In this document: positions 12,283 through 59,800 of the stretch, piece after piece | How positions within the stretch are numbered: position 1 is the first letter of the stretch | Layout: each line of letters begins with the position of its first letter | Assembly: GCA_030390025.1 (NCBI GenBank) | Contig: CM059432.1 | Coordinates: 24,926,001-24,990,000, forward strand | Direction: 5' to 3' | DNA length: 64,000 nt | From: Squalus acanthias | Lineage: Eukaryota | Made by a program: the position numbers and the translations under genes | The notes under the pieces: generated by a model | Database searches by the model: none | What the model was told of the DNA's origin: nothing | Seen by the model: the letters and a program-made list of their open reading frames with translations, nothing else

Positions 12283-15200
12283 ATAGAAACATAGACATAG
12301 AAACATAGAAGATAGGAGCAGGAGTAGGCCATTCGGCCCCCGAGCCTGCTCCGCCATTCAATGCGATCATGGCTGATCATCCAAATTCAGTACCCTGTCC
12401 CTGCTTTCTCCCCATATCCCTTGATCCCCTTAGCCTTAAGAAATATATCTAACTCCTTCTTGAATATATTTAATGAATTGGACTCAACTGTCTTCTGTGG
12501 TAGAGAATTCCACAGGTTCACCACTCTCTGGGTGAAGAAATTCCTCCTCATCTCAGTCCTAAATGGCTTACCCCTTATCCTTAGACTGTGACCCCTGGTT
12601 CTGGACTCCCCACCATCGGGAACATCATTCCTGCATCAAGTCTGTCTAGTCCTGTTAGAATTTTATAAGTTTCAATGAGATCCCCTTTCATTCTTCTAAA
12701 CTAAGCAAATACAAGCCCAATCGACCCAATCTCTCTTCGTACGTCATTCCTGCCATCCCAGGTATCAATCTGGTGAATCTTCGCTGCACTGTTTCCATGG
12801 CAAGAACAATCTTCCTCAGATAAGGCAACCAAAACTGCACACAATACTCAAGGTGTGGTCTCACCAAGGCCCTGTACAACTGCAGCAAGACATCCTTGCT
12901 CCTGTACTCGAATCCTCTCGCTATGAAGGCCAACATACCATTTGCCTTCTTAACTGCCTGCTGCACCTGCATGCTTACCTTCAGCGACTGGTGCACAAGG
13001 ACACCCAGGTCTCGTTGCACTTCCCCTTTTCCCAATCTATTGCCATTCAGATAATAATCTGCCTTACTGTTTTTGCCACCAAAGTGGATAACCTTGCATT
13101 TATCCACATTATACAGCATCTGCCATGCATCTGCCCAATCACCCAACCTGTCCAAATCATACTGGAGTTTCTCTGCATCCTCCTCACAGCACACATGCCC
13201 ACCCAGCTTTGTGTCGTCTGCAAACTTGGAGATACTTCATCTAGTTCCCTCGTCTAGATCATTAATATATTTTGTGAATAACTGGGGTCCTAGCACAAAT
13301 CCCTGCGGTACCCCACTAGTCACTGCCTGCCACTCGGAAAAAGACCCATTTATTCCAACTCTTTGCTTCCTGTCTGCCAACCAGTTTTCTATCCAAGACA
13401 TAACCTTACCCCCAATCCCGTGTGCTTTAACTTTGCACGCTAATCTCTTATGCGGGACCTTATCGAAAGCCTTCTGAAAGTCCAAATACACCACATCCAC
13501 TGGTTCTTCCTTATCTATTCTATCAGTTACTTCCTCAAAAAATTCCAGTAGATTAGTCAAGCATGATTTACCTTTTGTAAATCCATGTTGAGTTTGTCCG
13601 ATCCTGTCACTGTTTTCTAAGTGCTCTGCTATTACATCTTTTATAATGGACTCTAGCATTTTACTCACTACCGATGTCAGGCTTACTGGTCTATAATTCC
13701 CCATTTTTTCTCTACCACCTTTTTTAATAGTGAGGTTACATTAGCTACCCTCCAATCCATGGGAACTGTTCCAGAGTCTATAGAATTTTGGAAGATGACC
13801 AGCAATGCATCTATTATTTCTAAGGCCACTTCCTTAAGTACCCTAGGATGTAGATTATCAGGCCCTGGGGATTTATCGGCCTTCAATCCCATCAATTTCC
13901 CTAACACCATTTCCCTACACATACTGATTTCATTCAGTTCCTCCCACTCATTAGACCCTATGTTCCCCAACATCTCTGGGAGGTTATTTGTGTCCTCCTT
14001 TGTGAAGATAGAACGTATGTATGTATTTAATGGGTTTGCCATTTCTTTGTTCCCCATTATAAATTCCCCTGATTCTGACTGCAAGGGACCTATGCTTGAC
14101 TTCACCAATCTTTTTCTCTTCACATATCTATAGAAGCTTTTACAGTCAGTTTTTATGTTCCCTGAAAGCTTACTCTCATACTCTAGTTTCCCCCTCTTAA
14201 TTAATCCCTTTGTCCTCCTTTGCTGAATCCTAAACTGCTCCCAATCCTCAGGTTTGCTGCTTTTTCTGGCCAATTTATATCTCCTCTCCTTGGATCTTAT
14301 GCTATCCCTAATTTCCCTTGTTAGCCACCGTTGAGTCACCTTTTTTGTTTTAGTTTTATGCCAAACAGGGATGAACAAATTCTGTAGTTCATCCATGCAA
14401 TCTTTAAATGTTTGCCATTGCCTATCCACCATCAACCCTTTAAGTAACGTTCCCCAATCCATCCTAGCCAACTCGCCACTCATACCATCGTAGTTTCCTT
14501 TATTTAAATTCAGGACCCTAGTCTCTGAGTCAACTACTTCACTCTCCATCTTAATGAAGAATTCTATCATATTATGATCGCTCCTCCCCAAGGGACCTCG
14601 CACAACAAGATTGCTAATCAATCCTTTCTCATTACATAATACCCAGTCTAAGATGGCCTGATCTCCAGTTGGTTCCTTGACATATTGGTTCAGGAAACCA
14701 TCCCGTATACACTCTAGGAATTCCTCCTCCACAGTATTGTTAATAATTTGGTTAGCCCAATCTACATGTAGATTAAAGTCACCCATGATAACTGCTGTGC
14801 CCTTCTTGCACATGTCTCTAATTTCCCGTTTAATGCCATCCCCAACCTCAGCATTACTATTTGGGGGTCTGTATGCAACTCCCACTAACATTTTCTGCCC
14901 CTTGGTATTTCTCAGCTCTACCCATACAGATTCCACATCATCAGAGCTAATATCCTTCCTTACTATTGTGTTAATCTCCTCTTTAACCAGCAATGCTACC
15001 CCACCTCCTTTTCCTTTTTGCCTGTCCTTCCTGAATATTGAATACCCCTGGATGTTGAATTCCCAGCCTTGGTCACCCTGGAGCCATGTCTCCGTAATCC
15101 CAATTATATCATATCCGTTTACATCTATTTGCACAGCTAATTCATCCACCTTATTACGAATGCTCCTCGCATTAAGACACAGAGCCTTCAGGCTTGTTTT

Positions 15201-15558
15201 TTTAACACTCATTTAGAATATTGTTTACTGTGGCCATGTTTGATTTACACCCTTGATTTCTCTGCCTTCCACTTTTGCTTTTTTCCTTCCTGTCTTGTGT
15301 TTCTATCCTTGCTTCCCTTTCCTCTGTCTCCCTGCACAGGTTCCCAACCCCATTTTAGTTTAAACCCTCCCCAACAGCACTAGCAAATACTCGCCCTAGG
15401 ACATCGGTCCGGGTCCTGCCCAGATGCAAACCGTCCAGTTTGTACTGGTCCCACCTCCCCCAGAACTGCTTCCAATGTCCCAGGAATTTGAATCCCTCCC
15501 CCTTGCAGCATTCTTCTAGCCACGTATTCATCTGAAATATCCTTCTATTTCTACTCAC
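12283..15558 (-). mobile_element. CR1 LINE, 3.3 kb: ORF1 C-terminus (SGNH esterase-like) + frameshifted ORF2 (APE endonuclease + RT)
   Basis: 13683-15212: LNARSIRNK, GITETW, MGDFN, SDHN, SPGPD. 13237-13704: [24 protein letters not shown]. 12688-13194: RT C-terminus. Frame ending at 15355 has DGLHL..VGEGLN. CATAGAAA tail. Confidence 0.96.
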
Positions 15559-15982
15559 CGGAATAGTTGAACCAGAGGACTGGAGAATGGCCAATGTAAT
15601 ACCCATTATTAAAAAGGTAGACACATATAATCTGGGTAATTACATCTGTGATAGAGAAATATTTGGGGGGAAAAATTCGGTATCGCCCATTTTGAGGCAC
15701 TAATATCACAAATTATCGCTGGCAACTGCAAAATTCGTCTCCAGCGCCCCTGGAGGTGATTGGAGCGCTAAATCAAGCACTACACACCTCTCTTATGGGC
15801 GCTAACGTCGGGGAACAAGGCGTTACCTCAGAGCGCTACTCAAGCAATTACCTTGTACTCAGACAGACTGGTGCCTTCCAGTTCTTAAAGGGGAGGGTCC
15901 ATCATGCTGCACAGTCTCACCCTGCTCATTGCAGCGTTTGACCTCGGCCTGCAAGCAGGTAAAAATCTTCACCAAAGATTCA

Positions 15983-17860
15983 TGATAGCTACTCAGAGGC
16001 CCAGGGAGAGAGCTCGCTGGTTTAGCGACCAGGCATTGGTGGCTCTAGTTGGCGCTGTGGAACGCCGACGGGCAGTGCTGTTTCCAGAGACTGGCAGGAG
16101 GCCATTGCCCCGAGAGTTTACAAGGGTGTGGCGGGAGGTGGCCCAGCATGTTTCATCCAGGAGCCTGGTCCAAAGGACGCATACGCAGTGCCACAAGAAG
16201 TTCAACGACCTCACTCGGGTGGTCAGGGTGAGTACCTGCTTGAAAAACCTCTACATCCCACCATCTCAACCTCACTCTGTGCACAGACAGTGTAAATCCC
16301 CAAATCCCCAACACTCACCCAACAACTATGCCCATCTACTAAAACTCACATGCCCATCCCACACCTTGCACACATTAACGGCTATTCAACTATGGTAGGC
16401 ACATCTGCCAAACACATGGCTGCACACACGTGCTGCCCTTTTACTTGCAGGCTAACTGGAGGGAGAACAACGCACAGGGGGAGGACAGGCAGAGCTGCAC
16501 CCCCTCACACAACTGGAGGAGCGAGTCCACAGACTCATCGCCAGTCATGTCGTGGGCGCTGTGGCAGTTGGAGAGGTCGACCCCCTTGGGGACAGCAATG
16601 GTATGTTCATCAGCTTTATCTTCTCTCTCATACAACTTCCCCCTCACAACACAAGCCTTTTACGCTTTCCATCTAACTATACTGTCTCCATTCCTTGCTC
16701 CCTTCCTGCCCCGTGCCCTCATGTTAAAGCCACTCTTGTACCTTCCTGCTTTCAGATAGTGAGCCACCAGCTGACCAGCCTGTCCCTCAGCCTCCCAGTG
16801 GCAGTGATGCGGGAGAGGAGGTGGAACACGAAGCCCGCGCCTCACCGCCTGCATCTCCCGAGGGTGAGACATCCGATACTGGGGTCATGTGTTCACTGGA
16901 GGGGAGCAGGGAGTTTCCATCTGATGTGGGTGAAACTCCGGGACCCAGTGAGCTGCAGCAATGCCATGGGGGAAGGGATGCTCGGGGGCCATCTCTCCGG
17001 AGGGTGAGTGCGCGCACGAGTTCTGCTGCACAGGACTCGGATGAGGACCTCGATATAGCGGCGATGAATACTCCGGCGATGAGCTCATTGGCAAGGGTGC
17101 CCGACAGCATGGGTGCACTGGCTAGGAGCGTGGAGGAGTCTGCCACCAGCACAGCTGTCATCTGTATGCAAACCCTCGATCCCATCCTTGCCTCGTTGCA
17201 GAGGATGGTTGACTTGCAGAGAGACCGTGGGGACCCAGGGGCCATGCCGCGTGTAAAGGGTGAGGTGGCAACATCCATTGCAGCACAGGCCGAGGCAAGG
17301 CAACGGCTTAGTGCTGGAATCGAGTCAGTGGTTGGTGCCATCCAATCTCAGACTGCTCTGATGCACTCTCAGATTGATGCCACGCAAGCGCTGACTGCTG
17401 CCATCGTCGCTGGGTCGCCCACAGTCCACCGGGGATCTCATGGTGCCGCAGCAGGCCAGCAATCTGTGCCCCGGGGGAGTGGCAGTGTGTCAGTTGAGCA
17501 GGGAGGTGCTGTCTTCTCTCGGGATTGAGAGGTCGCACAACACCAGGTTATAGTCCAACTTGTTTGTGATTTCAAATAAAACTGTTGGACTATAACCTGG
17601 TGTTGTGCGACCTCTCAATTTTGTCCACCCCAGTCCAACACCGGCATCTCCGCAACATTCTCTCGGGATGACAGCATTCCTGCTGCCACCACTGCTACTC
17701 TGCCATTGCACTTGCCATAGCCTGTAACCCAGCCAGCCCAGACTGCTGCCGCCCATGCTGAGTTGGTGCAGTCTGCAGCCGGGCCCTGCAGGCCCAGAGC
17801 TAATCGAGGGCTTTTGCAAGGCCATCTGCAGTCTCTGGATCCGAGATTCAGCAGCCTTCC
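15983..17860 (+). pseudogene. Harbinger Myb/SANT-like DNA-binding protein gene, 3 exons (~15983-16227, 16451-16600, 16756-~17860), disrupted
   Basis: Exon 1 RERARWFSDQAL..W..VA..RTHTQCHKKFNDL. Splice sites AGG|GTGAGT, TTGCAG|, G|GTATGT, TTTCAG|. Exon 2 RTGGGQAELHPLTQLEE needs a frameshift. Exon 3 is cut by an insert at 17526. 3' end approximate. Confidence 0.8.
17526..17657. mobile_element. Short hairpin-forming insert, probably a pLTR fragment of a second Penelope-like family
   Basis: TSD TTCTCTCGGGAT (17514-17525, 17658-17669). Perfect 36-bp inverted repeat at 17524-17559 / 17584-17619. Confidence 0.7.
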
Positions 17861-18269
17861 GCCAGCCTTGCTGCAGCCACTGTGGCCACATTACGGAGGA
17901 GCAGTAGGGTGGGAAGGGGGGAAGTGCGAAAGGGAGGGAGATCATTCTCGAAGGGCGAATAACTAAAAATTCTCAAACAAATGGGGGGAATGTTTGTCCC
18001 AAAGTTGGATGTTTATGTAAATATATTGTTCACTCTGTTAACGCTTATCTCGATGTGGTAAGAACCCATTTTGTTTGTTAATGAATTGTTGTGTTTGTTT
18101 GTTATTGGTTGTGCTTAATAAGACACAGTTTGTCAGAAAAATAATTTTTTTATTGAAACCAGACAACTTTGCCAATTTTACTCATTGGAGCTTTGTCTGG
18201 TAATAGGGGCTTTGGGATGGTTGTAATCATGTGCTTCTTCATCCCAAAAGCCATCTTCTCTGTCATTCA

Positions 18270-19442
18270 TCAGAAGCGGTGTCTTATCAGGCGTTCATGA
18301 ACGGCCCTTGCAGAGGCAACATTGAGCGCCTCCCTCCCACATTGGTGCTGCTCATCCTCCTCTTCATCCTCCTCCTCCGCCTCCTCTTCCTCTTCCTCCT
18401 CTCCCTCTTCCTGAGGTGGTGCACCAATCCCTGGTGGCAATGGCTGTGTTCTCAGAATTGCGAGGTTGTGAAGCATGCAGCACGCAACAATAAAAGCGAT
18501 ACTCGCTCGGGAGAGTACTGCAGGGCTCCTGCAGAGTGGTCAAGACACTGGAACCGTTGCTTCAAGACACCGATCGTCTGTTCAATGAGGTTCCTGGTGG
18601 CGCTATGGCTCTCATTGTATGCGAGCTCAGCAGGAGTTACGGTTATGGAGCGGTGTCATCAACCAGGTGCAGAGTGGATAGCTCTTGTCCCCGAGGAGCC
18701 AACCATAAGGTTGATGCGGTGGTTGGAACAGGTCTGGGACACCAGTCTGGTGCAGGATGAATGCATCGTGGCTGCTGCCAGGATAGTGGGCATTGACGGC
18801 GAGGATGCACTGTCTGTGGTCGCAAACCAACTGGACGTTAAGAGAGTGGAAGCCTTTGTGGTTGCGGAAAACCTCTGCATTTTCATGAGGTTCCCGCAAT
18901 GCCACATGCGTGCAGTCAATGGCGCCCTGAACCATGGGGAAGCCCGCTATCCTAGCGAAGCTACATGCGCATTCACGCTGTTTGTCTCGGGTCATGGGGA
19001 ATGAGAAGAACTCCCTTCTCCTTTGGTAGAGAGCATTTGTGACCTCCCGGATGTAGCAATGGACAGTGAACTGGGAGATGTTTGCAATATCCCCAGTTGA
19101 AACCTGGAAGGAGCCGCTGGCATAGAAATTGAGAGCCACCATCACCTTCACTGCCACCGACAGAGACGTCCTGGTCCTGAGCTGAGGCTGCAGCTCTGGC
19201 TGCAGGAGGTGGCAGAGCTCTGTGACCGCCTCCTTGCTGAAGAGGAGCCTTCTAAAACACTGCTCCTCAGATAAATTAATGTAGGATAATTGCTCCCGGA
19301 ACACCCTGGGAGGGTAAGGTCTCCTGTGCAGAGCCCTGTTGGCCCTCCTCCCTCTTGCCACGTTTGCCACTCTCTCTCTCCGCCTCTGCTGCCTCCGAAG
19401 GTGAAGCTGGAGCACGACGCCCCATGTTAGTACAGCCCCCAT
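18270..19442 (-). pseudogene. Harbinger (HARBI1-family) DDE transposase, frameshifted
   Basis: ORF 18627-19442: ALNFYASGSFQ, GAIDCTH, KGFHSLNVQLVCD, PGSSHDAFIL, LLGDKSYP, WLMTP. Next frame IEQTIGVLKQRFQCL, then MLHNLAI, acidic tail and stop at 18270. Confidence 0.92.
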
Positions 19443-32615: not shown

Positions 32616-34271
32616 TCCTCTTGAATCTTTGAGCTCAGTTGGTAACCCTCTATTGCGTTAGTGTGGCATTTCCATGTTTTACACCAACCATCTTGTAAGA
32701 CTGCCAATTCAGCGTCTATGAGCACTGAATAATAGCTAGTTTGTGCTATTGATTCTTGCCAACAAGTAATTGGGTTGATACTGCCTTAACCTCCGTCTTA
32801 GCCCAGGTCTTAATCAGCATATTGGAAGACTGTCCCCATTTCACATTGATTAGCACTAGATTTTCTGTTCTTTGCAAAGAGGCCACATGGATGGCTGGTG
32901 TAAGAAACTGAAAAATTCACACTGGTATAGTACAGACTAAGCTTCTGAAGTTGCGACTAACACATATTGTTGGGTCTAATGAGAGAAAGCTTTATCCAGG
33001 TACTGCCAATGGCACACCTGACTTGGGAGGGCTTGATGTTGAAATTGGGTGGCTAGTGTTGTTGTCCCTTGCATAAAATAATACAAAGAAAAAAGTTAAC
33101 CAAAGCTATTTAATATAAGAGGCTTCTACCTGAGATAGAGAGGACTAATCCTTATAGCCTGAGCTGAATTGAACCCTAGATGCTTGATGGAAAAGTGAGT
33201 CTAAAAGCAAAAGGATTGAAAATATTCCATTCCACAGCACTGACATCTCTCAACTTAAGAAAGACAACCATTCAGCAGAAATAAAACAGTCAGCTACTTG
33301 CTAGGTGCAGGGGGTTATAAGAAGGTTTCTTCAAGTAGCCATTCAACCATCTGCACAAGTCTCATTGGAGCCTTTCTTGTTTTGAAAGCTTAAAATGGAA
33401 GTGGGACACTGTGCTGATGATCCCACAGTTGTTGTTGCACCTCCACGTGGTTCTTGGCATTGAATGATCGGATTGATTATCGGGAGCAATAGGAGTTGAA
33501 CACGAATCACATGTTTCTACTGACTCCAGAAGAAAACGCACCAATTTATTGTAGCTGTTGCTCTGTGATCAGCTGCCTGTAGGACTGAAAATCATTGTAC
33601 TCTACACATTAAATATTATTCCAAAGCTCAATCTCTTGTATCACCTTAATACTTCATTGCCATTGTGTAAAAAAGTACACTTAATCAAATGGAGGCCTAG
33701 AAGTGCATGCCTGTTTGTAGCAGAAGGCCCCTTTAATATGCAAATTGGAGTCCCATGATGCACTTATATACTCCGATTGCAATTTTGAGGGACAAGTGGG
33801 TGTAGCCTGCAGTGTGCATGCTCCGCTCATTTTTCCCAGGTGGTAGTTTCAAAAAATGGCCTCAAATCTTTTCTCAGATCATGACACATAGCAGCTGAGC
33901 AGCAATATAATAATGAGATCCATTTCTGCAGAGTAATAACTGAGCATACCATTAACATGTTGAAGGCATGCTTCAGATGCCTGGATTGATCTGGGGCAGC
34001 CTGCAATATAGCGAGGGAAAAAAGCTTAACTTGTATGATTTACTGCTGCTGATCAGTAACAAGCTGTATATTGAGAGAGTGGAATCCTTTCCTCTTGCCT
34101 TAGTAATGGCATTAAGCAAAGGAGCATGTAGGACTATGTGGGGGCAATTTGTGAGTTCCTGGGGCCAGGAGGAGCAGGAGTGCCCAACATTATGAGCACT
34201 GCTCTGCTCAGGTTTGTGGAACGCCTCTGACTGGAAGCTTGCCCATTGATTTCATTGGCATCATTAGATCT

Positions 34272-34945
34272 TAACATAAGAACATAAGAAATAGGAGCAG
34301 GAGTAGGCCATTTGGCCCATCGAGCCTACTCCGCCATTCAATAAGATCATGGCTGATCTTGTACCTCAACTCCACTTTCCTGCACTATCCCCATATCTCT
34401 AGATTCCCGTATTATTCAAAAATCTATCGATCTCTGTCTTGAATATACTCAACGACTGAGCCTCCACAGCCCTCTGGGGTAGAGAATTCCAAAGATTCAC
34501 CACTCTCTGAGTGCAGAAATTTCTCCTCACCTCAGTCCTAAATGGCCGACCCCTTAGTCTGAGACTGTAACCCCTGGTTCCAGACTCCTCAGCCGGGGAA
34601 ACATCCTCCCTGCATCTACCCTGTCAAGCCTGTAAGAATTTTGTATGTTTCAATGAAATTACCTCTCATTCTTCTAAACTCTAGAGAATATAGGCCTAGT
34701 CTACTGAACCTCTCCTCATAGGTCAATCCCCCCCATCCCAGAAATCAGTCTGGTGAACCTTTGTTGCACTCACTCTAAGGCAAGTATATTCTTCCTTAGG
34801 TAAGGAGACCAAAAATGTACACAATACTCCAGGTGTGGTCTCATCAGGGCCCTATATAATTGCAGTAAGGCATCTTTACTCTTATACTCAAATCCTCTTG
34901 TAATAAAGGCCAACATACCATTTGATTTCCTAATTGCTTGCTGTA
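34272..34945 (-). mobile_element. CR1 LINE 3' portion
   Basis: AACATAAGAACATAAGAA tail; ORF 34770-35081 NGMLAFITRG..RPHLEYCV. Confidence 0.9.
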
Positions 34946-35215
34946 TCTTCTGTATGAAAGTTGGCAACAGGTTGTCCTCTCCATCTTCAGATTGTAGCTG
35001 CACCTTTGGCTGATCTCCTTGCTGGAAGCTTTCTTCCCAGCTTCCATGATGATGCCACTTTTTGAAGCAGGTAGCATACACGCACGATCCTTGAGACCCT
35101 AACAGGGCTATATTGCAGGCTGCCCCAGATCAATCCAGGCATCTGAAGCATGCCTTCAACATGTTAGTGGTATGCTCAGTTATTACTCTGCAGAAATGAA
35201 TCTCATTATATTGCT

Positions 35216-44380: not shown

Positions 44381-45314
44381 TCGGGGGAAAAGACAACCCA
44401 GAAAGTTTAGTAGCGGAGATGAATTTGCTTTTAAATAATACATTTTATGCAAGAGGCAAACTTGGCTGCGAAACTTCAAGAAGAACTTCACTGCTGTAAG
44501 TCTCGCTGCGCTGTCATGAGATAACATCACAGTTCCTACTGTCTCTGTGAATTGTGGATTGTTCCAAAATGCAAAATTCAACGGAGCCCTAAATTATGTA
44601 TTAAGGCTCATGTTGGTGAGCATCAAGTGAAGTCTCCTTTCCCAGGCAAGCAGCCAGCTTGCTTGTCAAGGCTCTGCAAATTGGGGTAAACTTGCAAATC
44701 AAAATGCTTAGTGATGTTTGGTTTATTAAAGTTGTGATGCTCCGTAATGTTCATTTTCTGATTTAAAGCAGGCCTGTCATTTGAATTAATACTTTGTATC
44801 AAATTCAACACCTTACTTTGGTGTATTGTTAAATAATTTACACTACATAGCATGTGTTTGATACCTCCACTGTGTCGAATATAGGATACTAGATAGCTAG
44901 GAGCATGTTGCTAGGGAGGAACACATAAAAAGATTCAGATGGTGACCTAAACTATTAGAATGGAACTTGAGCACTACGGTGACATTTTCCAAATCTGCTT
45001 GTTTTATTGAGAAATTTGAATGAAGGGCTATTGCCATATTGCAAGATGCCACCAAGACAAGCTAAACCAGGAAGTTGTGGCGGATCGCCACCTAAACGGG
45101 CATTATCCACTCTTCCGTCTGTGGACAAATATCGAGCACCTTCCCTTTAAGGCACCTTACCTTTAAGGCAGGAGTGGGCGGGGCCTCAGGGCTTTCCCAG
45201 AGAATTCTGGGAACTTACGAGTCAGCCATTTTTGTGCCATGCAGTTGAATTAAAGTCTCTTGTTTTCCACATATGGATTCAGCCTCCATTCGTGTTTCGC
45301 GGCAGCCTCAACAT

Positions 45315-45326
45315 TGGTGACCCCGA
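45315..45326 (+). promoter_or_regulatory. Primer-binding site (tRNA-Trp)
   Basis: TGGTGACCCCGA 1 nt after the 5' LTR; matches the classical tRNA-Trp PBS. Confidence 0.85.
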
Positions 45327-45353
45327 TGCTCAGAACGTATTCCGAGCACTGCA

Positions 45354-48300
45354 ATGGCGGACACGAACGCAGTTTCCGTGAAACTGCCGGAGTTTTGGGA
45401 AAACCAGCCCGAAGCCTGGTTTCTCCAAGCTGAATCTCGCGTCCGGCTGCGAAATATCACCACAGATGGGACGAAGTACGACTATCTCATCACATCACTC
45501 GGTAGCGCCACAGTTTCGAAGGTTTGGACAGTGCTGCAGAACCCACCAGAGGAAGGCAAGTACGCACATCTCAGGACAGTGCTGCTTAAAAAATTTACGG
45601 CCTCGGCATATCAGCCTCACCGTCAGACCTCCTCTCCCACATGCTCTCCCTCACCGACGAGAGCCCACCCGGATCCCTCTTCCACACGCTGTTCATCCGC
45701 CAGCTCCCTCTCAGCATCCGCCCAGCGATCGTGGCGTCCGGCCTCACGAACCTGGAAGCCCTGGCCAATGAGGCCGACAAGCTGCTGTCTGCTCACTCCA
45801 GCCGCGACGTCACTCCGGACCTGGCAGCCAATGCCTGGGCGCGCCCCTCACCGGCCACCACGCGGCCACAAGGGCCTGCCACCAGGCCCACGGGGCCTTC
45901 ACGCCCCACTAACCCGGGCCACTCTTACTACCATGCACGGTTTGGCGCCAGGGCACAACGGTGCACACCTCCCTGCTCTTTCAAGTCAGCCCCCGTACCA
46001 GCCCCCGTGATGGCCGTGGGCCACGCGGGCTCCCTGCTGTTCGTTACGGATGACAAAACCGGCCGCCGGTTCCTGTGCGACACTGGGGCTCAGCACAGCA
46101 TCATCCCGGCCTCCTTCCTCGACATCCAAAAGGGCGAACGAGGGCCGGCGCTGGCTGCTGCTAACGGCTCGGAAATCCGGACGTATGGCACCCGGACGGT
46201 CACCCTCAACCTCGCTGGTCGCCGCTACCGATGGGAGTTTATCACTGCCAAGGTGCTCTCCCCTCTCATCAGTGCAGATTTCCTGTGCGCCCACGGCCTA
46301 CTGGTAGACATCCCCCATCACCGCCTCGTGGACATGAACACCATGTCCCCCATCCTGGGCGCCATGGCCCCCCCCGTCAACCCGCCGACATGGCGTCACA
46401 GTGCCACGTCTGGGCCACGGATGACTACTCGGCACTCCTGGCCGAATTCCCGGCCCTTACCAATCCGACCTTCTCCGCGGAGGCTGCCAAACACGGGGTG
46501 GAGCACTTCATCCCCACAACAGGCCCACCAGTGTACGCCCACGCCCGCAGGCTGGACCCGACCAAACTGGAGATCGCGCGGACCGAGATTGCCACCATGG
46601 AACAGCTCGGCATCATCCGCCGCTCCAACAGTCCCTGGGCCTCCCCACTCCACATCGTCCCCAAACCAGGCGGAGGTTGGCGCCCCTGCGGGGATTACCG
46701 CCGCCTCAACGACGCCACCACCCCTGATCGGTACCCCGTGCCGTACATTCAGGACTTCTCGGCTAGACTGGCTGGCCGCTCAGTCTTTTCCAAGGTCGAC
46801 CTGGTGCGCGGCTACCACCAAGTCCCCGTCCACCCCACGGACGTCCCCATTACGGACGTAATCACCCCCTTCGGCCTGTTCGAGTTCCTGCGGATGCCCT
46901 TTGGCCTCAAAAACGCGGCCCAGGCATTCCAACGGCTCATGGACTCGGTCCTTCGGGACCTGAAGTTCCTGTTCGTCTACCTGGATGACATCATGGTAGC
47001 CAGTTCCTCCAAGCAGGAACACCTCGAACACCTTTGCATCCTGTTCGGGCGCCTCAGCGCCCACGGGCTCATCCTCAGCCCAGCCAAATGCCAGTTCGGC
47101 CTGGACAAGATCGACTTCCTCAGCCACCACATCACCCATGCTGGGGCCATTCCCCTGCCCACCAAGGTGCAGGCCGTCCAACAATTTCCCCGCCCCACCA
47201 CCATCAAAGGCCTCCAGGAGTTCCTCGGGATGGTGAATTTCTATAACCGCTTCATCCCCAAAGCGGCATCCCTCATGAGGCCCCTGTATGAAGCCCTCCA
47301 GGGCAGGAGCAGCAAGATGGCGGTCGAATGGACGGCAGACGCGTCCGCCGCCTTCGACTCCACCAAGACCGCGCTCGCCAACGCCACCCTGCTCGCGCAC
47401 CCACAGCCCAATGCCAGAGTAGCGCTGACCACGGACGCATCCGACCACGCGGTCGGCGCCGTGTATGAGCAGTGGGTCGACGGCGCCTGGCAACCACTTG
47501 CCTTCTTCAGCCGCCAACTACGCCCCCCGGAGGTCAAGTACAGCACCTTCGACCGCGAATTCCTCGCGCTGTTCCTGGCGGTCCGCATTTCCGGTTTTTG
47601 CTTGAGGGCCACCCCTTCACTGCGTTTCTCGACCACAAGCCCCTGACATTCGCAATGGCAAAGACAACCGACCCCTGGTCCGCCAGGCAGCAGCGCCAGC
47701 TCGCGGCAGTGTCCGAGTTCACCACGGACATCCAACACGTCTCCGGCCGAGACAATGTGGTAGCCGACTGCCTCTCCCGCCCCGCCATCCATGCCGCACA
47801 CCTGGCAGTTGACTACGCTCAACTCGCAGCAGACCAGATCACCGACCCTGACCTGCTCTCCGCACCCACCAACCTACCAGGGCTACGCCTGGCCGACGTC
47901 GCCTGTGGCCCGACCGCAGTCACGGTCAAGTGCGACATATCCCTATGTCAACCTCGGCCCGTCATCCCAGCGTCCTGGCGCCGCCGGGTATTCGACATTC
48001 TCCACATCCTCTCCCACCCCGGCGCCCGCGCATCCATCAAATTGGTAGTCAACCGCTTCGTCTGGCGCGGCCTTCGCAAGGATGTGTGTACTTGGGCCAA
48101 CTCCTGCCTAGCCTGCCAACGGGCCAAGGTACAGCAACACACGAAAGCACCCCTCGAAGAGTTTACCGTCCCCTCGCGGAGATTCGACCACATCCACGTG
48201 GACATCGTCGGGCCCCTGCCGCCGTCGCAAGGCCACACGCACTTGCTGACCATCGTTGACCGCACCACACGCTGGCCCGAGGCAATTCCACTGACCTCTA

Positions 48301-49127
48301 CCAACACCGCCGACATCGCCAGAGCCTTCGTCAGCACCTGGGTCGCACGGTTCGGCGTCCCCTCCGACATGACGTCAGACAGAGGTCCGCAATTTACCTC
48401 TGAACTCTGGACCGCCGTCGCACGCAATCTTGGGGTGACCATTCACCGCACCACAGCGTACCACCCCCAAGCCAACGGACTGTGTGGGCGGTTCCACAGA
48501 TCCTTGAAGGCATCTCTTCGAGCCAGCCTCCAGGACGGCGCCTGGACCGACCGACTTCCGTGGGTCCTCCACGGCCTGCGCACCGCGGTTAAAGAAGACC
48601 TCCACGCATCGGCAGCAGAGCTCGTGTACGGTCAGCCGCTGCGTGTACCTGGCGAGTTCCTCCCCACCGCCACGACACCCTGGTCAGCCGACCAGCAACG
48701 CCACGACTTCACCGCACCAGCGCTGCAGTTCGCCCCGGTGCCCATTGCCCGACACGGCGAAGCCACCTCACACGTCCCACTAAGCCTGCACCAGGCACGA
48801 TTTGTTTTCGTCCGGCACGACTCCCACCGCGGACCCCTTCAACCCCCGTACGACGGGACCTACAAGGTGCTATAGGCTGGGGACAAATTTTTCACCCTGC
48901 AAGTGGGCGACAGGACCGAAAAAGTGTTGGTTGACCGACTCAAGCCAGCACACTCGGAGCCCGGGGAGCAGGTCCCTGTAGCTCGTCCACCTCCACGCGG
49001 CCGACCTGCGCTCAAGCTGGTTCACCCGGCTGCTCCACACCCGGCCGTTCCACGTCCACCGGCGTCCTACAAGAGCCGCTCCGGCCGGCCCATCAGACCG
49101 TCGCACTGTCTCGTCCACACCTCCTAA
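45354..49127 (+). pseudogene. gag-pol (gag, protease, RT, RNase H, integrase) with about 3 frameshifts and a stop
   Basis: Gag KLPEFW..PEAWF. (C>S)YYH..FG..C..PC zinc motif. FLCDTGA protease. WASP, DYRRLN, RMPFGL, YLDD RT. TTDAS RNase H. HHCC, HVDIVGP, SDRG integrase. Frames switch near 45610, 46390 and 47585; TAG at 48873. Confidence 0.95.
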
Positions 49128-50764
49128 GCAGATTCTGGGGGGAGCTGTGTGGCGGATCGCCACCTAAACGGGCATAATCCACTCTTCCGTCTGTGGACAA
49201 ATATCGAGCACCTTCCCTTTAAGGCAGGAGTGGGCGGGGCCTCAGGGCTTTCTCAGAGAATTCTGGGAACTCACGAGTCAGCCATTTTTGTGCCATGCAG
49301 TTGAATTAAAGTCTCTTGTTTTCCACATATGGATTCAGCCTCCATTCGTGTTTCGCGGCAGCCTCAACAAAGTAATGCTTGGATGACATTAAGCTTGAGT
49401 TTTAAAAGCCTGTGGATTGAAGAAAGAGGAGATGGCTGGGGGAAGTTAAGAAATTTTACAGATTTGAGGTCTGGGAATGTTTAAGTTAGAATGCAATGGA
49501 TCTTGATTTCAACACAATAAGGACACAGGAAAGAGGAAGAGGTGCAAGATGGTACATTTGAGGAACAAGAGATCAAACTCCAGAAGAGCATTAACCATGT
49601 TAGTACTGATTAAATAAAGAAAGACAAGTTGGGGGCAGCATGGGGTGATTTCAGGATCCAATGCCCCAAAGGGAGTGGGGCTCACAGGGAGTGAATCTTG
49701 GCAAATTGCAGGCATACAAGCTTGTAAGTGCCATTCCCCCACTGTGAGTGCTGGATTACAGAATCACTTCTGTTAAGGTGGAGGCTGGATGGATCTCCTA
49801 TCAGCCAAGATTTTTTCTTGTATCCATTATTGCTTTGAAGTACATTGCTAAACATTAAAGGGATGAATTTGCTTGGCAGTTTTGGGGGCCATTTCCGGAA
49901 TAACTCTGGCGGGAATGGCCGCAAACTTTGCCAAGACCCAGATACGCTAGGCCCAGACTTGCACTTAAATTTTCTGCCCACCCCAAAGAGGGTGGGGCCA
50001 AGGCCAGGGATTCTCAGCCTTACAGGAACTCAACTTAAGTTTGGAGGCTGATACAGCAAGTCAGAAGAGGCATACTGATGGGCAGCAGTGGGCCCCACAG
50101 CAGGATCCAGTCTGGGATCACGACATTTTGTAAACATATTCAGAGTGAATCCCTTGGCACGGTTGCTGCGGGGGGCAGGGGCATTTGCAGGAGGGGAAAA
50201 GGTGGACTGCTCACCAACCCCCCTCCCCCGGCTTGGCCGCATTTTGCACTCTCCTGGGGAAAATGGGTGCCGAAGAAGTGCCCTTAGTGGTATGGGCGCC
50301 CACTAGATCCAAGCAGATAGAGTGACCTCCCACTAATACTGCATACTCTAGCAGTGTGACTAGCAGAGGCCACTGGTGGGCACGATTCTGGCAGTTGTGC
50401 TGCTATCATGGCCCTGAGCAATTTTGGTCCCCAGTTGTTCTTAGCCCCTAGGAATTCTGGGCTGCCTGGGCCTGCCATCTTATTGTGATTAATGCTCGTG
50501 GACAGGGATACTGAAAAAACCTCGAATAAAGTAACAATAATGCTGGGAGTAGCCCCATTACTCTATTATTAACTCTTTAAGCAGTTAGAAAAATTAAAAT
50601 TAAAATCGAGCTTAAAAGCTTTGTTTGTCTCTTCTCCCATTCTTATTCACATTCTGGCTTCTGCTTTTATTTATGTAATTTTGTTTTTGTCATTTCTAAC
50701 GACTTTACTATAATCTTGCATTGGTTCTTGATGAAAATGAATTGCCCTTTAAAAACTTGTCAAT

Positions 50765-52239: not shown

Positions 52240-52967
52240 GGGGTAAAAATTGGATAGCGCGCCCTTTGGGGTGCTACCTTCGCCGGGGCGTTAATTTTAG
52301 CGCTCCGAAAAAGTTAGCGCCCCCGCGGCTGATTTTCCCAGGTAGCGCCCCGAGAGGGAGGAGGGGCGCTACTGGAAGTGCCCCGCGTCCCTCTTGGGGC
52401 GCTATGAGCCAATATCACGGCACTACGTGCTGCAGTACTGCAGGCCTTCCTCCCCTTATTAAAGGGGAGGGGCCTGGCACAGCGCGTCCCGGCGCCCAGC
52501 TGGGCCAGCAGGGATCGGGAGTGCCGGCAAACGAGCCCGGCAATCAAGAGGAGTGCCAGGCTCACGGAGAGCAGCCAACACCCCACGGGGGGGGCTTCAC
52601 GGGGGTCGGGGACAGCAACGGGGGCAGGTGCTGGCAGGCGGCCAGCAACAAAAATGGCCGCCCGCCACTTCCACTGTAACTAGCGCCGCCCCGACCGCAG
52701 GTCGGCCCCGCTGACCCCGGTGGACATAGCGTCCGGCGGTAAGTCGGGGGGCGCCACCCAATATTACAGCCGGGGCACGAGTGGGGCGCTATGTACGGCG
52801 ATGATGTCATCGCCGGCAGCGCAGCGCCGTGCGGCGCTAACGGCGTTAACCTCCGCTGAATTTTGCGGGAGTCATTAGTGGTGCCGCGCCCAAGCGCTAG
52901 TTGATTTGCGCCCCGTTAGCACCCTCTTAGGGCGCTAACAGGAGGCGCAAATCAACCGAATACCCCC
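52240..52967. mobile_element. GC-rich non-autonomous PIF/Harbinger element
   Basis: GGGGTAAAAATTGG..CCGAATACCCCC termini with TAA TSD (52237-52239, 52968-52970). Colinear with 4686-5435. Confidence 0.82.
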
Positions 52968-53609
52968 TAAATATTTTTGGTATGAAAAAACTTTGATAAC
53001 GTGCTTACTAATGCCTGTATTCTAAAAAAAATGAGCACAATTGAGTCTCCCCAAACCAGCATAATTGGCAGAATCTTGCAATTGTGACAGGGGCCATGGC
53101 CAGTTTTATGGGCGGGGCCTGATACGGGCATGTTGAATCTTGACCCAGTGTAAAAAGTCGCGAAAACACGAGTGTAAGTGGTATTGGCCATAATTCGGTA
53201 ATGTTTAAAATTTTCTGAATTTTTGCGCTGGTTCGGCCTATTCCGCCCAGATTGCGTTGATATTACTAGCGTAAACTTGAGCCCATTGGGGTTAAGAGAC
53301 AGTTGGATGTATTTCTGAGTTGAGTAAGGATTGAGGAATATAATGAGAAGATAGATGAGTGGGGTTGATCTATCACATAGGATAGCCTTAAGAACCTAAG
53401 TTTAGGTTTGAAGTTCAATCTTAAGCTTAAGTTTAATACTGGTGGAAGGAAGGTGTGTCAGTTGCCTCTGGTGACATTAACTATATGATCAGCCATAATC
53501 TCATTGAATGGTGGAGCAGGCTCGAAGGGCCGAATGGCCTACTCCTGCTCCTATTTCTTATGTTCTTGTGTTCTTTTTAGTCTGACATTACAAACTATGC
53601 TACACAATC

Positions 53610-55585
53610 TGTAAGGTTTCCAAAATTTTGGAGATCCCCAAAACCTAAGGAAAAAGGACTTTGGATTTACCTCAGAGTGATAAAAATGCATTTGGACCTA
53701 ACCTAAGGACTTTAAGACCAAAACCCAAGTTGTGGCATTTTAAAACTATATCTGGGCCTGTAAAGGGACAAGGAGGTGGGGTGGACCTCTGTAAAAGCAG
53801 TTTTGGTTATTGCAGTTAATTGCACTGTCTGGGGAACCGGGATGACCCCACTCAAGCCCCAGCAGACATTAACATTTGAACAATAAACCCAGGGACAGTC
53901 CCACCCAAAATACAGGCCCCATCAAAACCGATTATAGGGCCCATCAGAAAACATGCATAATAAAACATCACTCAGGACCATTCTATAGAAAAGACCGAGT
54001 CCAGCCTAGAAACCCAAAACACGAAATCAATCACCAGTGATCAACCAAGGAGATCGACAGGATGCAAACCATCCCAAAAGGCCATTTGACACTGACAGAG
54101 CAGTTACTGGTAACAGGCCCGTCAAAACCAGACAATGAACTGAGTAGATTTGGCAGGTAGATAAGGCCATAGAAACATAGAAACATAGGAGATAGGAGCA
54201 GGAGTAGGCCATTCGGCCCCTCGAGCCTGCTCCGCCATTTAATGAGATCATGGCTGATCATCCAAACTCAGTACCCTGTCCCTGCCTTCTCCCCATATCC
54301 CTTGATACCTTTAGCCTTAAGAAATATATCTAACTCCTTCTTGAATATATTTACTGACTTGGCCTCAACTGCCTTCTGTGGTAGAGAATTCCACAGGTTC
54401 ACCACTCTCTGGGTGAAGAAATTCCTCCTCATCTCAGTCCTAAATGGCTTACCCCTTATCTTTAGACTGTGACCTCTTGTTCTGGACTCCCCCACCATCG
54501 GGAACATCCTTCCTGCATCCAGTCTGTCTAACCCTGTTAGAATTTTATAAGTTTCAATGAGATCTCCTCTCATTCTTCTAAACTACTGCGAGTATAAGCC
54601 CAATTGACCCAATCTCTCCTCGTACGTCATTCCTGCCATACCAGGTATCAGTCTGGTGAATCTTCGCTTCACTCCCTCCATGGCAAGAACATCCTTCCTC
54701 AGATAAGGTGACCAAAACTGCACACAATACTCAAGGTGTGGTCTCACCAAGGCCTTGTACAGCTGCAGCAAGACATCCTTGTTCCTGTACTCAAACCCTC
54801 TCGCTACGAAAGCCAACATACCATTTGCCTTCTTAACCGCCTGCTGTACCTGCATGCTTACCTTCAGCGACTGGTGCACAAGGACACCCGGGTCTCGTTG
54901 CACTTCCCTTTCTCCCAATCTATTGCCGTTCAGATAATAATCTGCCTTTCTGTTTTTGCCACCAAAGTGGATAACCTCGCATTTATCCACATTATACTGC
55001 ATCTGTCATGCTTCTGCCCAATCACCCAACCTGTCCAAATCATACTGGAGTTTCTCGGCATCCTCCTCGCAGCACACACGCCCACCCAGCTTTGTGTCAT
55101 CTGCAAACTTGGAGATATTACATCTAGTTCCCTCGTTCAATGTTCAATGGGTGAGATTGAAGGCCTGTTAAAAAACCAGTTAACGCGCTAGTAAATCGTT
55201 ACCGATTTACGAGCCCGCCAAAAACCAGACAATGAACCCAAAACCGCAATTTAGCCCAACTGTCAAAGGATTGGTGAGCATTGTCCCTGGTCCTTCAAAA
55301 CCTAACTTAGCTAGTAAAATGGGGTTGGGAGGGATGAAGTATTGTTCTACTGTCATTTCCCTCGCTTGGACCAAAGTGTTCCCCACCTTTAGAGTGTTAA
55401 GAGTGTTGTCATTTTGTGTTTTACCTTTTGAATAAAGATTGAAGTTCTTTCATCAATCTCAGTTGTCTGCTGCACCTTTTGTCACAACCCCCAAATAAGT
55501 CCAAGGTCTCGAACCAAGGGAGTGGGAGCGATTCGAACCGCTCAGAAGTCAGAGGTAAAGCTGACACAAACCACCACCCCCTACA
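53610..55585 (+). mobile_element. LTR copy A (contains nested CR1)
   Basis: TGTAAGG..CCCTACA termini, AATAAA at 55432; similar to copy B at both ends. Confidence 0.85.
54168..55137 (-). mobile_element. CR1 LINE, 5'-truncated, nested in LTR copy A
   Basis: ORFs 54583-55002 and 54268-54573. CATAGAAACATAGAAA tail. Same subfamily as 12283-15558. Confidence 0.93.
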
Positions 55586-55590
55586 GGGAC

Positions 55591-56877
55591 TGTAAGGTTT
55601 CCAAAATTTGCAGATCCCCAAATACCTAAGGAAAAAGGACTTTGGAACTACCTCAGAGTGATAAAAATGCATTTGGGCCTAACCTAAGGAATTTAAGACC
55701 AAAAACCAAGTTTTGGCATTTTAAAAACATGTCTGGGCCTGTAAAGGGACAAGGAGGTGAGTTCGACCTCTGTAAAAACAGTTTGGTTGTTGCATTTAAT
55801 TGCACTGTCTGAGGAACCGGGATGACCTCACTCAAGCTCCAGCAGACATGAATATGTGAACAATAGACCCAGGGGAAGAGCAGTCCCACCCAAAAGACAG
55901 GCCCCATCAAAACCGATTACAGGGCCCATCAGAAACATGCATAATACAAATCACTCAGACCCATTTCTATGGAAAGACCGAGTCCAGCCTAGAAAACCAA
56001 ACACAAAACCAATCAACTGTAATCAACCAAGGAGATCAACAGGATGCAAGCCATCCCAAAAACTAGTTAACACGCTAGTAAAGTCATTACTGTTAACGAG
56101 GCCTCCAAAATCTTACAATGACCGGGATTTGATTTGGTTTTGATAGGAAGCTTCAATTAGTATAATTGAAAGGCTGTTTTCTCAAGAAGTCAGTTCAGCA
56201 GTTACAACAGTTCAAGTTCGAGTTCTCCAGTAGAGTTACACAGCAGCAAGGAATTCAGCAAGCAGTCCGGCAGAAGACAGTTACAGTTCTGCAAGAAGGC
56301 AGTTCCACAGCTCGGAAGAAGACAGTTACAGTTCTGCAAGAAGGCAGTTCCACAGCTCGGAAGAAGACAGTTTAAACAGAGGCAGAGTTCAACAGAAAGA
56401 AGTTCAACAAAGAAGGCCAACAGCTCCAGAAGTAGGCCGACACGCAAGAAGAGACCAGAGCGACCACCTCAGTGACCTACGGACACCTCACGGCAACAAG
56501 GGCCTTACGAAACTTTTTATTCAAAAGACTCTAAACCCTAACTCTCAACTGTCAAGGATTCGTTTGGTGAGCATTATCCCTGGTTCTCTGGAGTCCAACT
56601 TAGCTAGTGAAGTGGGATTGGGAGGGGTGTAGTACTCTTTTAATGTTATTTCCCTCGCTTGTACCGAAGTGTTCCCCACCTTTAGAGTGTTACGAGTGTT
56701 TGTGTTGTATTTTACTTTCTTGAATAAAGATCGAAGTTCCTTCATCAAACTCAGTTGTCTGCTGCACATTTTATCACAACTCCCAAATAAGTCCAAGGTC
56801 TAGAACCAAGGGAGTGGGAGCGATTCAAACCACTCAGAAGTCAGAGGTGAAGCTGACACAAACCACCACCCCCTACA
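55591..56877 (+). mobile_element. LTR copy B (1287 bp)
   Basis: TGTAAGG..CCCTACA termini, TATAA at 56161, AATAAA at 56723. Followed by AATC matching the AATC before copy A. Confidence 0.88.
56272..56372 (+). repeat. 45-bp tandem repeat (2.2 copies) inside LTR B
   Basis: AGAAGACAGTTACAGTTCTGCAAGAAGGCAGTTCCACAGCTCGGA twice plus a partial unit. Confidence 0.9.
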
Positions 56878-59800
56878 AATCCTGACCAGTTATATTCCAC
56901 AAATGACACTTCCATGGGTCTGGCCCCATGACAATCATTGTGTTTAATGAGGTATTTGATCGTCAATGACAAATTTGGAAATGTTACATTTAGTCCCCTC
57001 ATCCAAACCATTGATATAGATTGTGAATAGCTGGGGCCCAGGGATAATATCCGGGGATATTCATTTGATTACTTCCAGAGATCATGAAATGTATGAATAC
57101 TTTATCCAGTGGTACTACAGTCCAAGATCATTGTACAGAGAAATTGCAAGACTCTGCTCCTCGCATTAAGACTGGAAAATCAGGAATGCTGCAATAGAGT
57201 GCATTGATCTCCACACTCAATTCTCCGAACAGGCAAGACTCCACTCCGGAGAGGAGTGTTGGAAGTTCAGGACTTACATTTCTGCACATACTATTGTTGC
57301 ACTGGCTTTAACCTGTTTATCTTAAATGAGTTAAAGCCTGCCTAAAGATAATGCATACAGGAGAGTAGCGCCAGCGCATTCAGTGTTCATACATGAACTT
57401 CATCATTCACAAGGATGACTGTTTTGTGTAGAACTCCTCCTGAGGTGACACCAGGAAATTCTGCTCCAGTAACATTACAAATGGGACAGCTTTACTCCTA
57501 ATTAAAGAGTTTCATACCTTTCATGATCTCTGGAAGTAATCAAATGAATATCCCCGGATTTTATCCCTGGGCCCCAGCTATTCAGAATCTATATCAATAA
57601 TTTGGATGAGGGGACTAAATGTAACATTTCCAAATTTGTCATTGACAATCAAATACCTCATTAAACACAGTGATTGTCATGGGGCCAGACCCATGGAAGT
57701 GTCATTTGTGGAATATAACTGGTCAGGATTGTATAGCATAGTTTGTACTGTCAGACTAATAAGAACATAAGAAATAGGAGCAGGAGTAGGCCATTTGGCC
57801 CTTCGGGCCTGCTCCGCCATTCAATGAGATCATGGCTGATCATATAGTTAAAGTCACCAGAGGCAACTGACACACCTTCCTTCCACCAGTATTAAACTTA
57901 AGCTTAAGATTGAACTTCAAACCTAAACTTAGGTTCTTAAGGCTATCCTTTGTGATAGTTCAACCCCACTCATCTATCTTCTCATTATATTCCTCAATCC
58001 TTACTCAACTCAGAAATACATCCTGCGGCTTTTACCAGGCGTAAGAATTTGACAGGCATTCAGCGGGTGGAAGTTGTGCAAAAAGCGCAACTCTCCACCC
58101 GCAGAGGCACTTTTCCCAGGCAGGCGAAGATTTGTCAAGAGAATTCTTGACAGATCGCTAGTGCTGGGTTTCAGCGCTTGTGCTTCGCATGCCTGAAACT
58201 GGCACTTGCGCGGCCCCTACGGGCGCGTACACACCCGTGGGGGTCGGAAAATCTGGCCCAATACCTCACATTTATCTGTGTTGAATTTTGGTATCATATT
58301 TGTATCACATTCACTGTGTTACAAAAATGCATAGAGCACTTAGGAAAGAAAATAGATAGTGAGCGAGCTAGTAAAGGGAGCAATGTGGGGTGTCCCAAAG
58401 GCACGGTCAAAGGCAGGATGATTTGTTCGGGGGGGGCGGGGTTTGAAGGTTGGGAGAAAGGAATTAAGAAAAGGGTTGGATCTGTGATCCTGCCCCCAAA
58501 CCGGGTGAGATAGAAGCGGAAACAGTGGGGAAAAATCAGGCGGTGAGGCAGCTCATCGCAAGCTTTCTCCCCTTCACCGTCTTCCACATGTAAATGCTGG
58601 CGGGGAGGCAGGGCCTTGCAAGCCGCTACATTTCCGTGCTTACCGCCACTGTCTCTGCCGACCCCAAAGATCTCCAGGTGAAAGGTGACGGTAGTCCCTG
58701 GGTAACAGCAATATGCACCCTATGCTGCTGTATGAAGGGTGAGGATCTAGTAATGGGCTCTTTTCCCTCCATATAGGCCCCACACATTTATGTTTATAGG
58801 CCTCAGTCTTGGCCAGTGCCTAAAAAAAAAATCTTGCCTTCCTCTTCAGGGTTATTCTGCCACTTCTGGTGCCACTGCGGCCAAGTCGCTGCCGCACTGC
58901 TAGAATTTTCCGCCATGACAGTAGCAGGCTGGAACTCTGACCTTTCATGACCAATCAGCCCCAGTCCAGAAAATAAGCTGTGTTTACAACGGGGTCAGGG
59001 CAGCGGGCAGATGACACGCCTCGCTGTAAAGTGGTCAACGGGAGGAGAATCCCACCAAGCGGGTTTTTTTTGGGAGAGAATTCAAGAGGGTAGGAGACAA
59101 ACAGTAAGCCGGATTCGGAGGTTGCAGGCATAGTGAATGGAAAAGATCACAAAAGGAGGATGGAGCGCTATCCTGAAAGGATTTGAAAACAATACTTACT
59201 TTGCAAGGTGCTTTGCTGTACTGACGCAGCTAGCTTAGATATAAGGGTACATTTTCTCAGTATGTTGCTGCGATGCTGGAAATGCAGCACTGTGATTCTT
59301 TCATTGGCACGAGCTGACCATGGTGGGTCTTTCAGCATTGGCTCTCATTTTGTGTTGAAGGTGAGCTCCCATCCTGGCCAGCACCTTGTGCCAAAAGGGT
59401 GAGGTTCAGGAAACCCAGCACATCATCAGCTCCTGAACAGCTGCACGCCACAATTAAATGGATGCAGCCACTTAAAGGGGAATGGCCACATATGGGGACA
59501 CATTCTTTTTCAGCCTTTCCAAAGGATGCATGGGGCAAATGAAAGGTGGAATCTGTGAGCAACTGAAGGGAGTGCTGCAGCACCCAAATCCACTGTTTGA
59601 TGACTAACAAAGAGGAACATGCTTCAGCAATGAGATGGGTGCAAGGAGCATTCCCATCGTTTGGCACACCAGTGAACCTTCTGCAGTGCAGAGTGCTTTA
59701 TGTACACTACCTGATGGAGCTGGGAACAGAAATAGAGATTGCACGCCTTAAGGAAGCTGCCATGGTAGATGGCTCAAGTCCATGGTTTATGCTGCAAAGT

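Follow-up and report, generated by a model that had tools for sequence, protein, structure and literature searches.

How two related, unlike long terminal repeats (LTRs) came to abut within a single insertion scar is the question raised by a locus in the genome of Squalus acanthias. The locus lies in a stretch of 64,000 nucleotides of contig CM059432.1 (positions 24,926,001 to 24,990,000), which we refer to as the window and in which all positions below are counted. Two LTRs, here called A and B, stand there in head-to-tail order, each running from TGTAAG to CCTACA, with the five bases GGGAC between them and a single pair of AATC target-site duplications (TSDs) around them (Table 1). This layout had been proposed in an earlier note made from the sequence alone, and re-reading of the sequence reproduced its coordinates and motifs exactly (AATC, LTR A, GGGAC, LTR B, AATC). 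Termini of the form TG...CA together with a short TSD mark the LTR of an integrase-mobilised retroelement, and such termini are found here twice over. The host DNA around the unit belongs to an inverted repeat whose second arm runs uninterrupted through one AATC (read as GATT on the forward strand, 57727-57730). Because this empty site has a single AATC and nothing added, the TSD that had been proposed is confirmed and GGGAC does not belong to the host DNA. The window contains the junction pattern CA-GGGAC-TG a single time, none of 100 shuffles contains it, and there are no copies of the LTR family in the window beyond A and B.

The account that we prefer, at a probability of roughly 0.42, is that the unit records the one-off integration of an end-joined complementary DNA (cDNA) dimer of mixed subfamily, each half of which later collapsed to a solo LTR. 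One germline nucleus would have contained two linear cDNAs, one from each of two subfamilies of a single high-copy LTR family. Host end-joining might there have fused the left (U3) end of the B-type cDNA, from which neither the terminal AC nor three bases of polypurine-tract (PPT) primer had been removed, to the right (U5) end of the A-type molecule, which had been cut back to CA. The resulting join would read CA-GGG-AC-TG, which is the anatomy of the locus. Integrase acting on the two outer ends of the dimer would have left one 4-bp duplication, and a single TSD is what is present. Both interiors might then have been lost by recombination between each half's own identical LTRs, a course that is favoured over recombination of A with B, and two unlike solo LTRs would have remained side by side. 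Later a long interspersed nuclear element (LINE) entered A, A lost ~400 bp of its middle, and both LTRs drifted by roughly 2.5-3%. On this best reading, the two-LTR unit is an inert fossil and not a mobile element.

The first support for an end-joined dimer comes from the junction itself. An intact U5 end meets an intact U3 end across a few bases, as in junctions of the 2-LTR-circle type, and the inner ends of A and B are complete to the base, which random internal deletion would hardly give; since both inner ends are intact, the join was made by a process acting on LTR ends. A circle joins LTRs that are identical, whereas A and B differ by 22.5% in one block and in the number of their U3 units and both forms exist elsewhere, so that two molecules are needed. 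By analogy with human immunodeficiency virus type 1 (HIV-1), in which one class of 2-LTR junction is made up of a processed U5, 3 nt of PPT and an unprocessed U3, GGG would be the remnant of a PPT and AC an unprocessed U3 end: the available part of a study of HIV-1 2-LTR junctions treats AC as the unprocessed U3 dinucleotide and reports U3 mispriming in 22.7-30.4% of the junctions (PMC5618025).

The second support comes from the manner in which A and B differ. Over the first 277 bp there are 23 substitutions and 3 one-base gaps between them, exactly the 26 differences that had been counted for the first ~280 bp. The overall divergence of ~10% given in the earlier note conceals a marked unevenness. 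At the two ends 56 of 687 columns differ (8.2%, 95% confidence interval (CI) 6.2-10.5), with no distinction between the 5' part (38/464) and the tail (18/223; P=1.0), while in the block at 55238-55360 the count is 27 of 120 (22.5%; Fisher P=1.4e-5 against the ends) and the two LTRs are 72-80% alike in 61-nt windows. The U3 layouts differ as well, a unit of ~110 bp being present in two copies in A and in one copy in B. Hyperediting of the ADAR type was rejected as a source of the differences: in the 5' part, 7 sites read A in LTR A and G in LTR B, and 7 read the reverse.

Both forms recur in other copies of the family. Contigs of four (X1, X3, X6 and X7) of 15 public runs were compared with positions 55110-57500 at a likeness of at least 85%, an interval that takes in only the last part of the LINE and lies downstream of the left TSD and the 5' part of A; the findings from this comparison rest on the rows listed, which number 40 of 113 for variants, 24 of 726 for loose ends and 32 of 14867 for pieces. 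Summed contig depth, which is not a copy number, reaches 3,400-322,000 over bins of the LTRs (X3, X1) as against 9-51 in the spacer between the host arms, and the LTR family of A and B is dispersed and very abundant. The two versions of the divergent block are both covered in all four runs (depth 20953, 89899, 1950 and 1446 at 55334 in A; 52465, 116198, 2676 and 5564 at 56630 in B). Among the listed loose ends, contigs that match A from 55238 extend upstream with sequence unlike B (four in X3, two in X7), and contigs that match A from 55140 extend with sequence that, judged by eye, is like A to the left of the LINE (three in X1, three in X6); because the latter resume A-like sequence at that point, the two-unit form of U3 exists without the LINE. 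The one-unit U3 join of B (55980-56110) is crossed, among the pieces listed, by piece 21 of X6. A and B thus appear to belong to two subfamilies of one LTR family. That they were unequal already when they were joined, as the earlier note had proposed, is supported by the divergent block, the U3 layouts and the presence of both versions in other copies, and so by subfamily-level differences rather than by the clock of the host arms. A separate lead, a 21-nt LTR-end motif with matches at four loci in metagenome contigs and one in viral contigs, was discarded, all five flanks being unlike the LTR and the matches attributable to chance.

The two LTRs also differ in what has been inserted into or removed from them. 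LTR A spans 1976 bp in full and 1005 bp after removal of its LINE, as compared with 1287 bp for LTR B; its boundaries had been given correctly, and the antisense LINE of 970 bp within it had gone unmentioned. We take this LINE to be of the CR1 type, going by its 8-bp tail, and its closest relative in the window is a long copy on the reverse strand (12290-15212) in which the matching part (12290-13253) adjoins an endonuclease open reading frame (ORF) of 509 aa. The counterpart of B's positions 56122-56529 is missing from A. The statement that A lacks the TATA and 45-bp-repeat middle of B holds for the repeats; the "TATA" amounts to one TATAA at 56161, which does not locate the promoter because A's counterpart reads differently. 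Each LTR has an AATAAA ~150 bp from its end. The reverse strand of a motif in the U5 of A (55530-55541) has what we take to be a resemblance to a tRNA T-arm; there are no tRNA genes in the window, and a search of 53300-58100 against Rfam gave two matches only, both far below the gathering score.

Table 1. Features of the two-LTR unit and the host DNA around it (positions in the 64-kb window)
Feature	Position	Strand	Remarks
Host arm 1, left of insertion	53305..53609	+	versus 57727-58023 reverse complement: 10 substitutions and one 8-bp gap in 297 columns
Short LINE 3'-end piece within arm 1	~53485-53567		
Left target-site copy AATC	53606..53609	+	
LTR A, TG...CA	53610..55585	+	1005 bp without LINE; blastn 86% to B over 53610-54153 and 55257-55585
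First U3 tandem unit of A	54076..54168, continuing 55140-55170	+	20/63 differences from B's unit
5'-truncated LINE in LTR A, ~970 bp	~54169..55139	-	93% to copy at 12290-13253
Second U3 unit of A	55171..55237	+	10/64 differences from B's unit; shortened by deletion join 55237/55238
Subfamily-diagnostic block	55238..55360	+	22.5% different from B 56530-56653
AATAAA of A, poly(A)-signal position	55431..55436	+	
Five-base spacer GGGAC	55586..55590	+	read as GGG (putative PPT remnant) and AC (putative unprocessed U3 end)
LTR B, TG...CA	55591..56877	+	1287 bp
45-bp tandem repeat, middle of B	56246..56372	+	2.8 copies
AATAAA of B	56723..56728	+	
Right target-site copy AATC	56878..56881	+	
Host arm 1, right of insertion	56878..57097	+	7/220 differences from 57511-57730 reverse complement
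Single-copy spacer between arms	57098..57510	.	X1 and X3 contigs cover 57060-57500; 2 and 1 other letters, depth 9 and 16
Host arm 2 with empty site 57727-57730	57511..58023	-	

The inverted duplication that carries the insertion (53305-58023) is a local feature, nearly single-copy; scraps of LINEs lie in its arms, and a spacer of 413 bp separates them. Its arms differ at 17 of 513 columns (3.3%, in agreement with the ~3% of the earlier note), or 1.7% per lineage (95% CI 1.0-2.6), and the 8.2% divergence of the LTR ends exceeds this (P=0.0004). From a comparison of this kind (10% against 3%) it had been argued that A and B were diverged when inserted. That argument is weak, because the insertion is probably 2.5-3% old per lineage and the arms probably run slow. 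The LINE must be younger than the arms, since it sits inside LTR A, and it has 14 private changes in 504 positions (2.8%), its three sister copies having 7, 14 and 15; this clock is itself noisy, being drawn from four young copies with a fifth, older copy left out. The 2.8% of the LINE and the 1.7% per lineage of the arms do not differ significantly (Fisher P=0.18), but the direction of the contrast is the wrong one, given that the arms must be the oldest. Likewise, the LTR stretch and the best public contigs have in common 0.51-0.54 of 241 words, which on the assumptions made places the LTRs ~2.3-3.4% away from anything there. The arms are probably slow by chance or through conversion, ~5-6 of the 8 points of end divergence can be accounted for by change after insertion, and much of the 8% difference between the ends of A and B probably arose in this way. 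Gene conversion from arm to arm is a known process, as the accessible portions of three papers describe (PMC8600007, PMC3723533, PMC1803023); sought here as a clustering of arm differences, it was not found (longest identical run 97 bp, P=0.44). As a post hoc observation, 8 of the 10 substitutions in the distal arm lie within the 130 bp nearest the insertion, perhaps reflecting less conversion beside heterology.

With respect to copy number, the pair looks, on weak grounds, like a single old locus, with B private to the locus rather than amplified. In 19 of the 32 B rows listed, letters other than that of B make up at least 90% of the depth in each of the four runs, and the word sharing of organism A (0.51-0.54) lies below the ~0.65 that would be expected for a young multi-copy sister set. 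No contig bridging the A-B junction is present among the 32 listed pieces of 14867, in which short junction contigs would not appear, and no joint or loose end falls at an LTR end among 15 listed joints of 22 and 24 listed loose ends of 726; these absences speak neither for nor against a multi-copy junction. That A-GGGAC-B should instead be the terminal repeat of a propagating subfamily, a double LTR found at many loci with different TSDs, or that end-joined mixed dimers should be a regular route in this family, strikes us as doubtful, yet not far-fetched.

Several considerations weigh against the integration of an end-joined mixed dimer. The interpretation of GGG and AC is an analogy with HIV-1, the real PPT of this family and the bases beyond its U5 never having been seen, and integration of A five bp upstream of the 3' LTR of a B-type element predicts the same five letters. 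The account calls for three steps that are rare or repeated, namely a dimer, mixed subfamilies and two collapses. An intermediate third form of the LTR could match either version of the divergent block and blur the argument from depth; contigs drop rare variants, so the "private" letters of B are no proof of a single copy. Finally, the only copies of the family in the window are this pair, a sampling argument that favours a recurrent or amplified structure.

This last consideration bears directly on the alternative that survives best, which we nevertheless regard as unlikely: that A-GGGAC-B is a composite LTR, propagated by reverse transcription as a repeat at both ends of an element and perhaps present in many copies, of which the locus is a solo. 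The composite might have originated when an A-type element, with GGGA as its 4-bp TSD, landed in the PPT end of a B-type element, or by read-through from an A-type provirus into an adjacent B LTR. One TSD and a spacer of 5 bp fit such a history, and a pair of this kind would be likelier to turn up in a small sample of the genome if it were multi-copy. A is also without the middle stretch in which B has the only TATAA and the 45-bp repeats, as might be the case for a passenger lying upstream, and weak terminators that allow tandem transcripts have been proposed, in the available part of one paper, for other tandem elements (PMC11899658). On the other hand, A keeps its AATAAA, so that most transcripts should stop within A and collapse the composite to one LTR. 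Other copies of the family carry sequence where A is deleted, the letters of B are nearly absent from the family's contigs, and the word sharing falls short of the value for young sisters.

Distinctly less probable is an origin in which a 2-LTR circle of one subfamily recombined with, or templated the repair of, an older solo LTR of the other subfamily at the TSD, leaving reciprocal chimeras on either side of the junction. It would give the same junction anatomy and would dispense with a heterodimer, 2-LTR circles being routine by-products (according to the portion available of PMC11054761), and entry of cDNA at existing elements independently of integrase has been shown for Tf1 (PMC11042837, in excerpt). 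It requires, however, recombination in a vertebrate germline between sequences several percent apart, and the Tf1 products described in that excerpt share one LTR and keep no junction. Nor was an asymmetry of age detected between the two LTRs: in the homologous 3' block the private rows listed number 3 for A and 6 for B (P=0.51).

An A-type element might also have integrated 5 bp before the 3' LTR of a B-type provirus, with recombination between the B 5' LTR and an A LTR then removing what lay between. We consider this improbable, even though it involves common steps only, explains why A ends exactly at CA, as integrase would leave it, and yields the spacer letters observed. In an element of several kb, the insertion would need to have struck one spot to within a few bases. 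Moreover, the left LTR should begin as B-type, yet A and B differ at family-variable sites near their start (55623, 55727, 55932 and 56016), with the reservation that such sites can recur, and the divergence of the 5' part equals that of the tail.

It is very improbable, in our judgement, that the unit is simply an old provirus that lost its interior, whose LTRs aged in place, one of them being partly overwritten by another subfamily, while conversion kept the arms alike. The end divergence is, with its CI, little above twice the estimates from private changes, and the arm-to-arm conversion that is invoked is a known process; but both ends of the deletion must fall at most 5 bp from the LTR borders, the 22.5% block, the number of U3 units and the different middle call for a further event, and the arm differences are unclustered. 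The subfamily differences and the exact inner ends thus uphold the view of the earlier note that this is not an ordinary internally deleted provirus.

An assembly artefact is very unlikely, because the spacer and arm layout is present in two samples of organism A, because the empty arm runs from the left flank into the right without a break, so that both represent one locus, and because A differs too much from B for the two to be alleles. This holds although neither the A/B join nor either TSD is bridged by any listed contig and although piece 7 of X1, an exact match to 56878-56997, continues with 52 letters unlike the end of B, which graph simplification of the two arms would also give. We do not claim this piece as an empty allele of arm 1, since bubble removal between the arms predicts the same letters, at a depth near 12.

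Readings of the unit as an element capable of movement in its own right fared less well. The suggestion that it is a coding-free LTR-dimer mobile element, in which A would serve as the 5' LTR and B as the 3' LTR, fails for want of a primer site and because reverse transcription would equalise the two LTRs. As the earlier note had held, no primer-binding site (PBS) follows A or B, and no purine tract was found before A; with five bases between its LTRs, the unit is therefore not a terminal-repeat retrotransposon in miniature (TRIM) or other non-autonomous LTR element. It has no internal region, and so is not a tandem LTR retrotransposon with a shared LTR. Double insertion at one target site is likewise rejected, GGGAC being different from AATC and absent from the empty site. 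The absence of a coding region that had been asserted was borne out: apart from the LINE piece, the only long ORF in the unit is a stop-free frame of 132 aa with no match in Pfam. We presume the family to be of the endogenous retrovirus (ERV) or Gypsy class; no coding region was found in the unit.

Elsewhere in the window, a Gypsy-type element at 45076-49369 is flanked by AAGT on each side and has LTRs that are 92% identical; its reverse transcriptase/RNase H and its integrase lie in different frames, and its primer site, which starts with TGG, has no complement of at least 8 nt in its own LTR. At 15889-19442 an ORF of the Myb/SANT-like type on the forward strand is paired with a DDE_Tnp_4 transposase ORF on the reverse strand, an arrangement that we take to be typical of a Harbinger/PIF transposon. 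A GC-rich non-coding repeat at 52262-52961 and 4724-5426 (69.5% alike, with a hairpin at 52330-52417) may be a miniature DNA transposon. Self-inverted or short inverted duplications are found at 7354-7539, 17524-17619 and 33901-35215, the last being 95.5% alike over 112 bp.

If the preferred history of an end-joined mixed dimer is true, the locus is a germline fossil of two different retroelement cDNAs that were end-joined and co-integrated, a step known from circles in infected cells, and it would mean that two subfamilies were active in one nucleus. Dating from LTR-LTR divergence would then mislead here, since the two LTRs under one TSD would never have been identical. Should the junction prove to be multi-copy, it would follow that LTRs can lengthen by incorporating another LTR entire. 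No function for the host is indicated.

A literature search that covered few subscription papers gave no account of a pair of unlike solo LTRs that abut within one TSD. The "tandem LTR" of one paper (PMC7898769) denotes ordinary flanking LTRs, and the HERVarium preprint mentions tandem LTRs only as a pattern that it does not capture. The nearest likeness in the anatomy of the junction is provided by HIV-1 2-LTR circles with PPT retention, as represented by sample HL3a23 in the accessible part of PMC5618025, in which the U5 end to CA is followed by a few G, AC and the TG of U3; the circle joins the identical ends of one molecule, whereas the A/B junction is chromosomal, lies inside a TSD and unites two subfamilies. 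The LTR-LTR tandem junctions reported at low frequency in Drosophila (McGurk and Barbash 2018, PMC5932611, seen in part) likewise join LTRs themselves, which implies a route other than unequal exchange, but the mechanism worked out in the sections available is double insertion, in which the TSD is kept in the junction, and the A/B spacer is not a TSD. Tandem elements under one TSD are common; those known from plants and fission yeast, which are tandem LTR retrotransposons and tandem TRIMs, have, like the present unit, several LTRs within a single TSD, and the insertion of pre-formed tandems has been proposed for them; in the excerpts at hand (PMC11899658, PMC13570524, PMC11042837) these tandems alternate LTRs with internal regions and hold a middle LTR in common, and TRIMs are defined by a PBS and PPT between two identical LTRs (PMC13570524), whereas A and B are two whole, abutting LTRs with no internal region. 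In their TG...CA termini, 4-bp TSD, AATAAA at ~150 bp from the end and very high copy number, A and B agree with the ERV or Gypsy solo LTRs of fish and sharks as described in the available portion of PMC4422223; they stand apart from these in being two unlike LTRs under one TSD.

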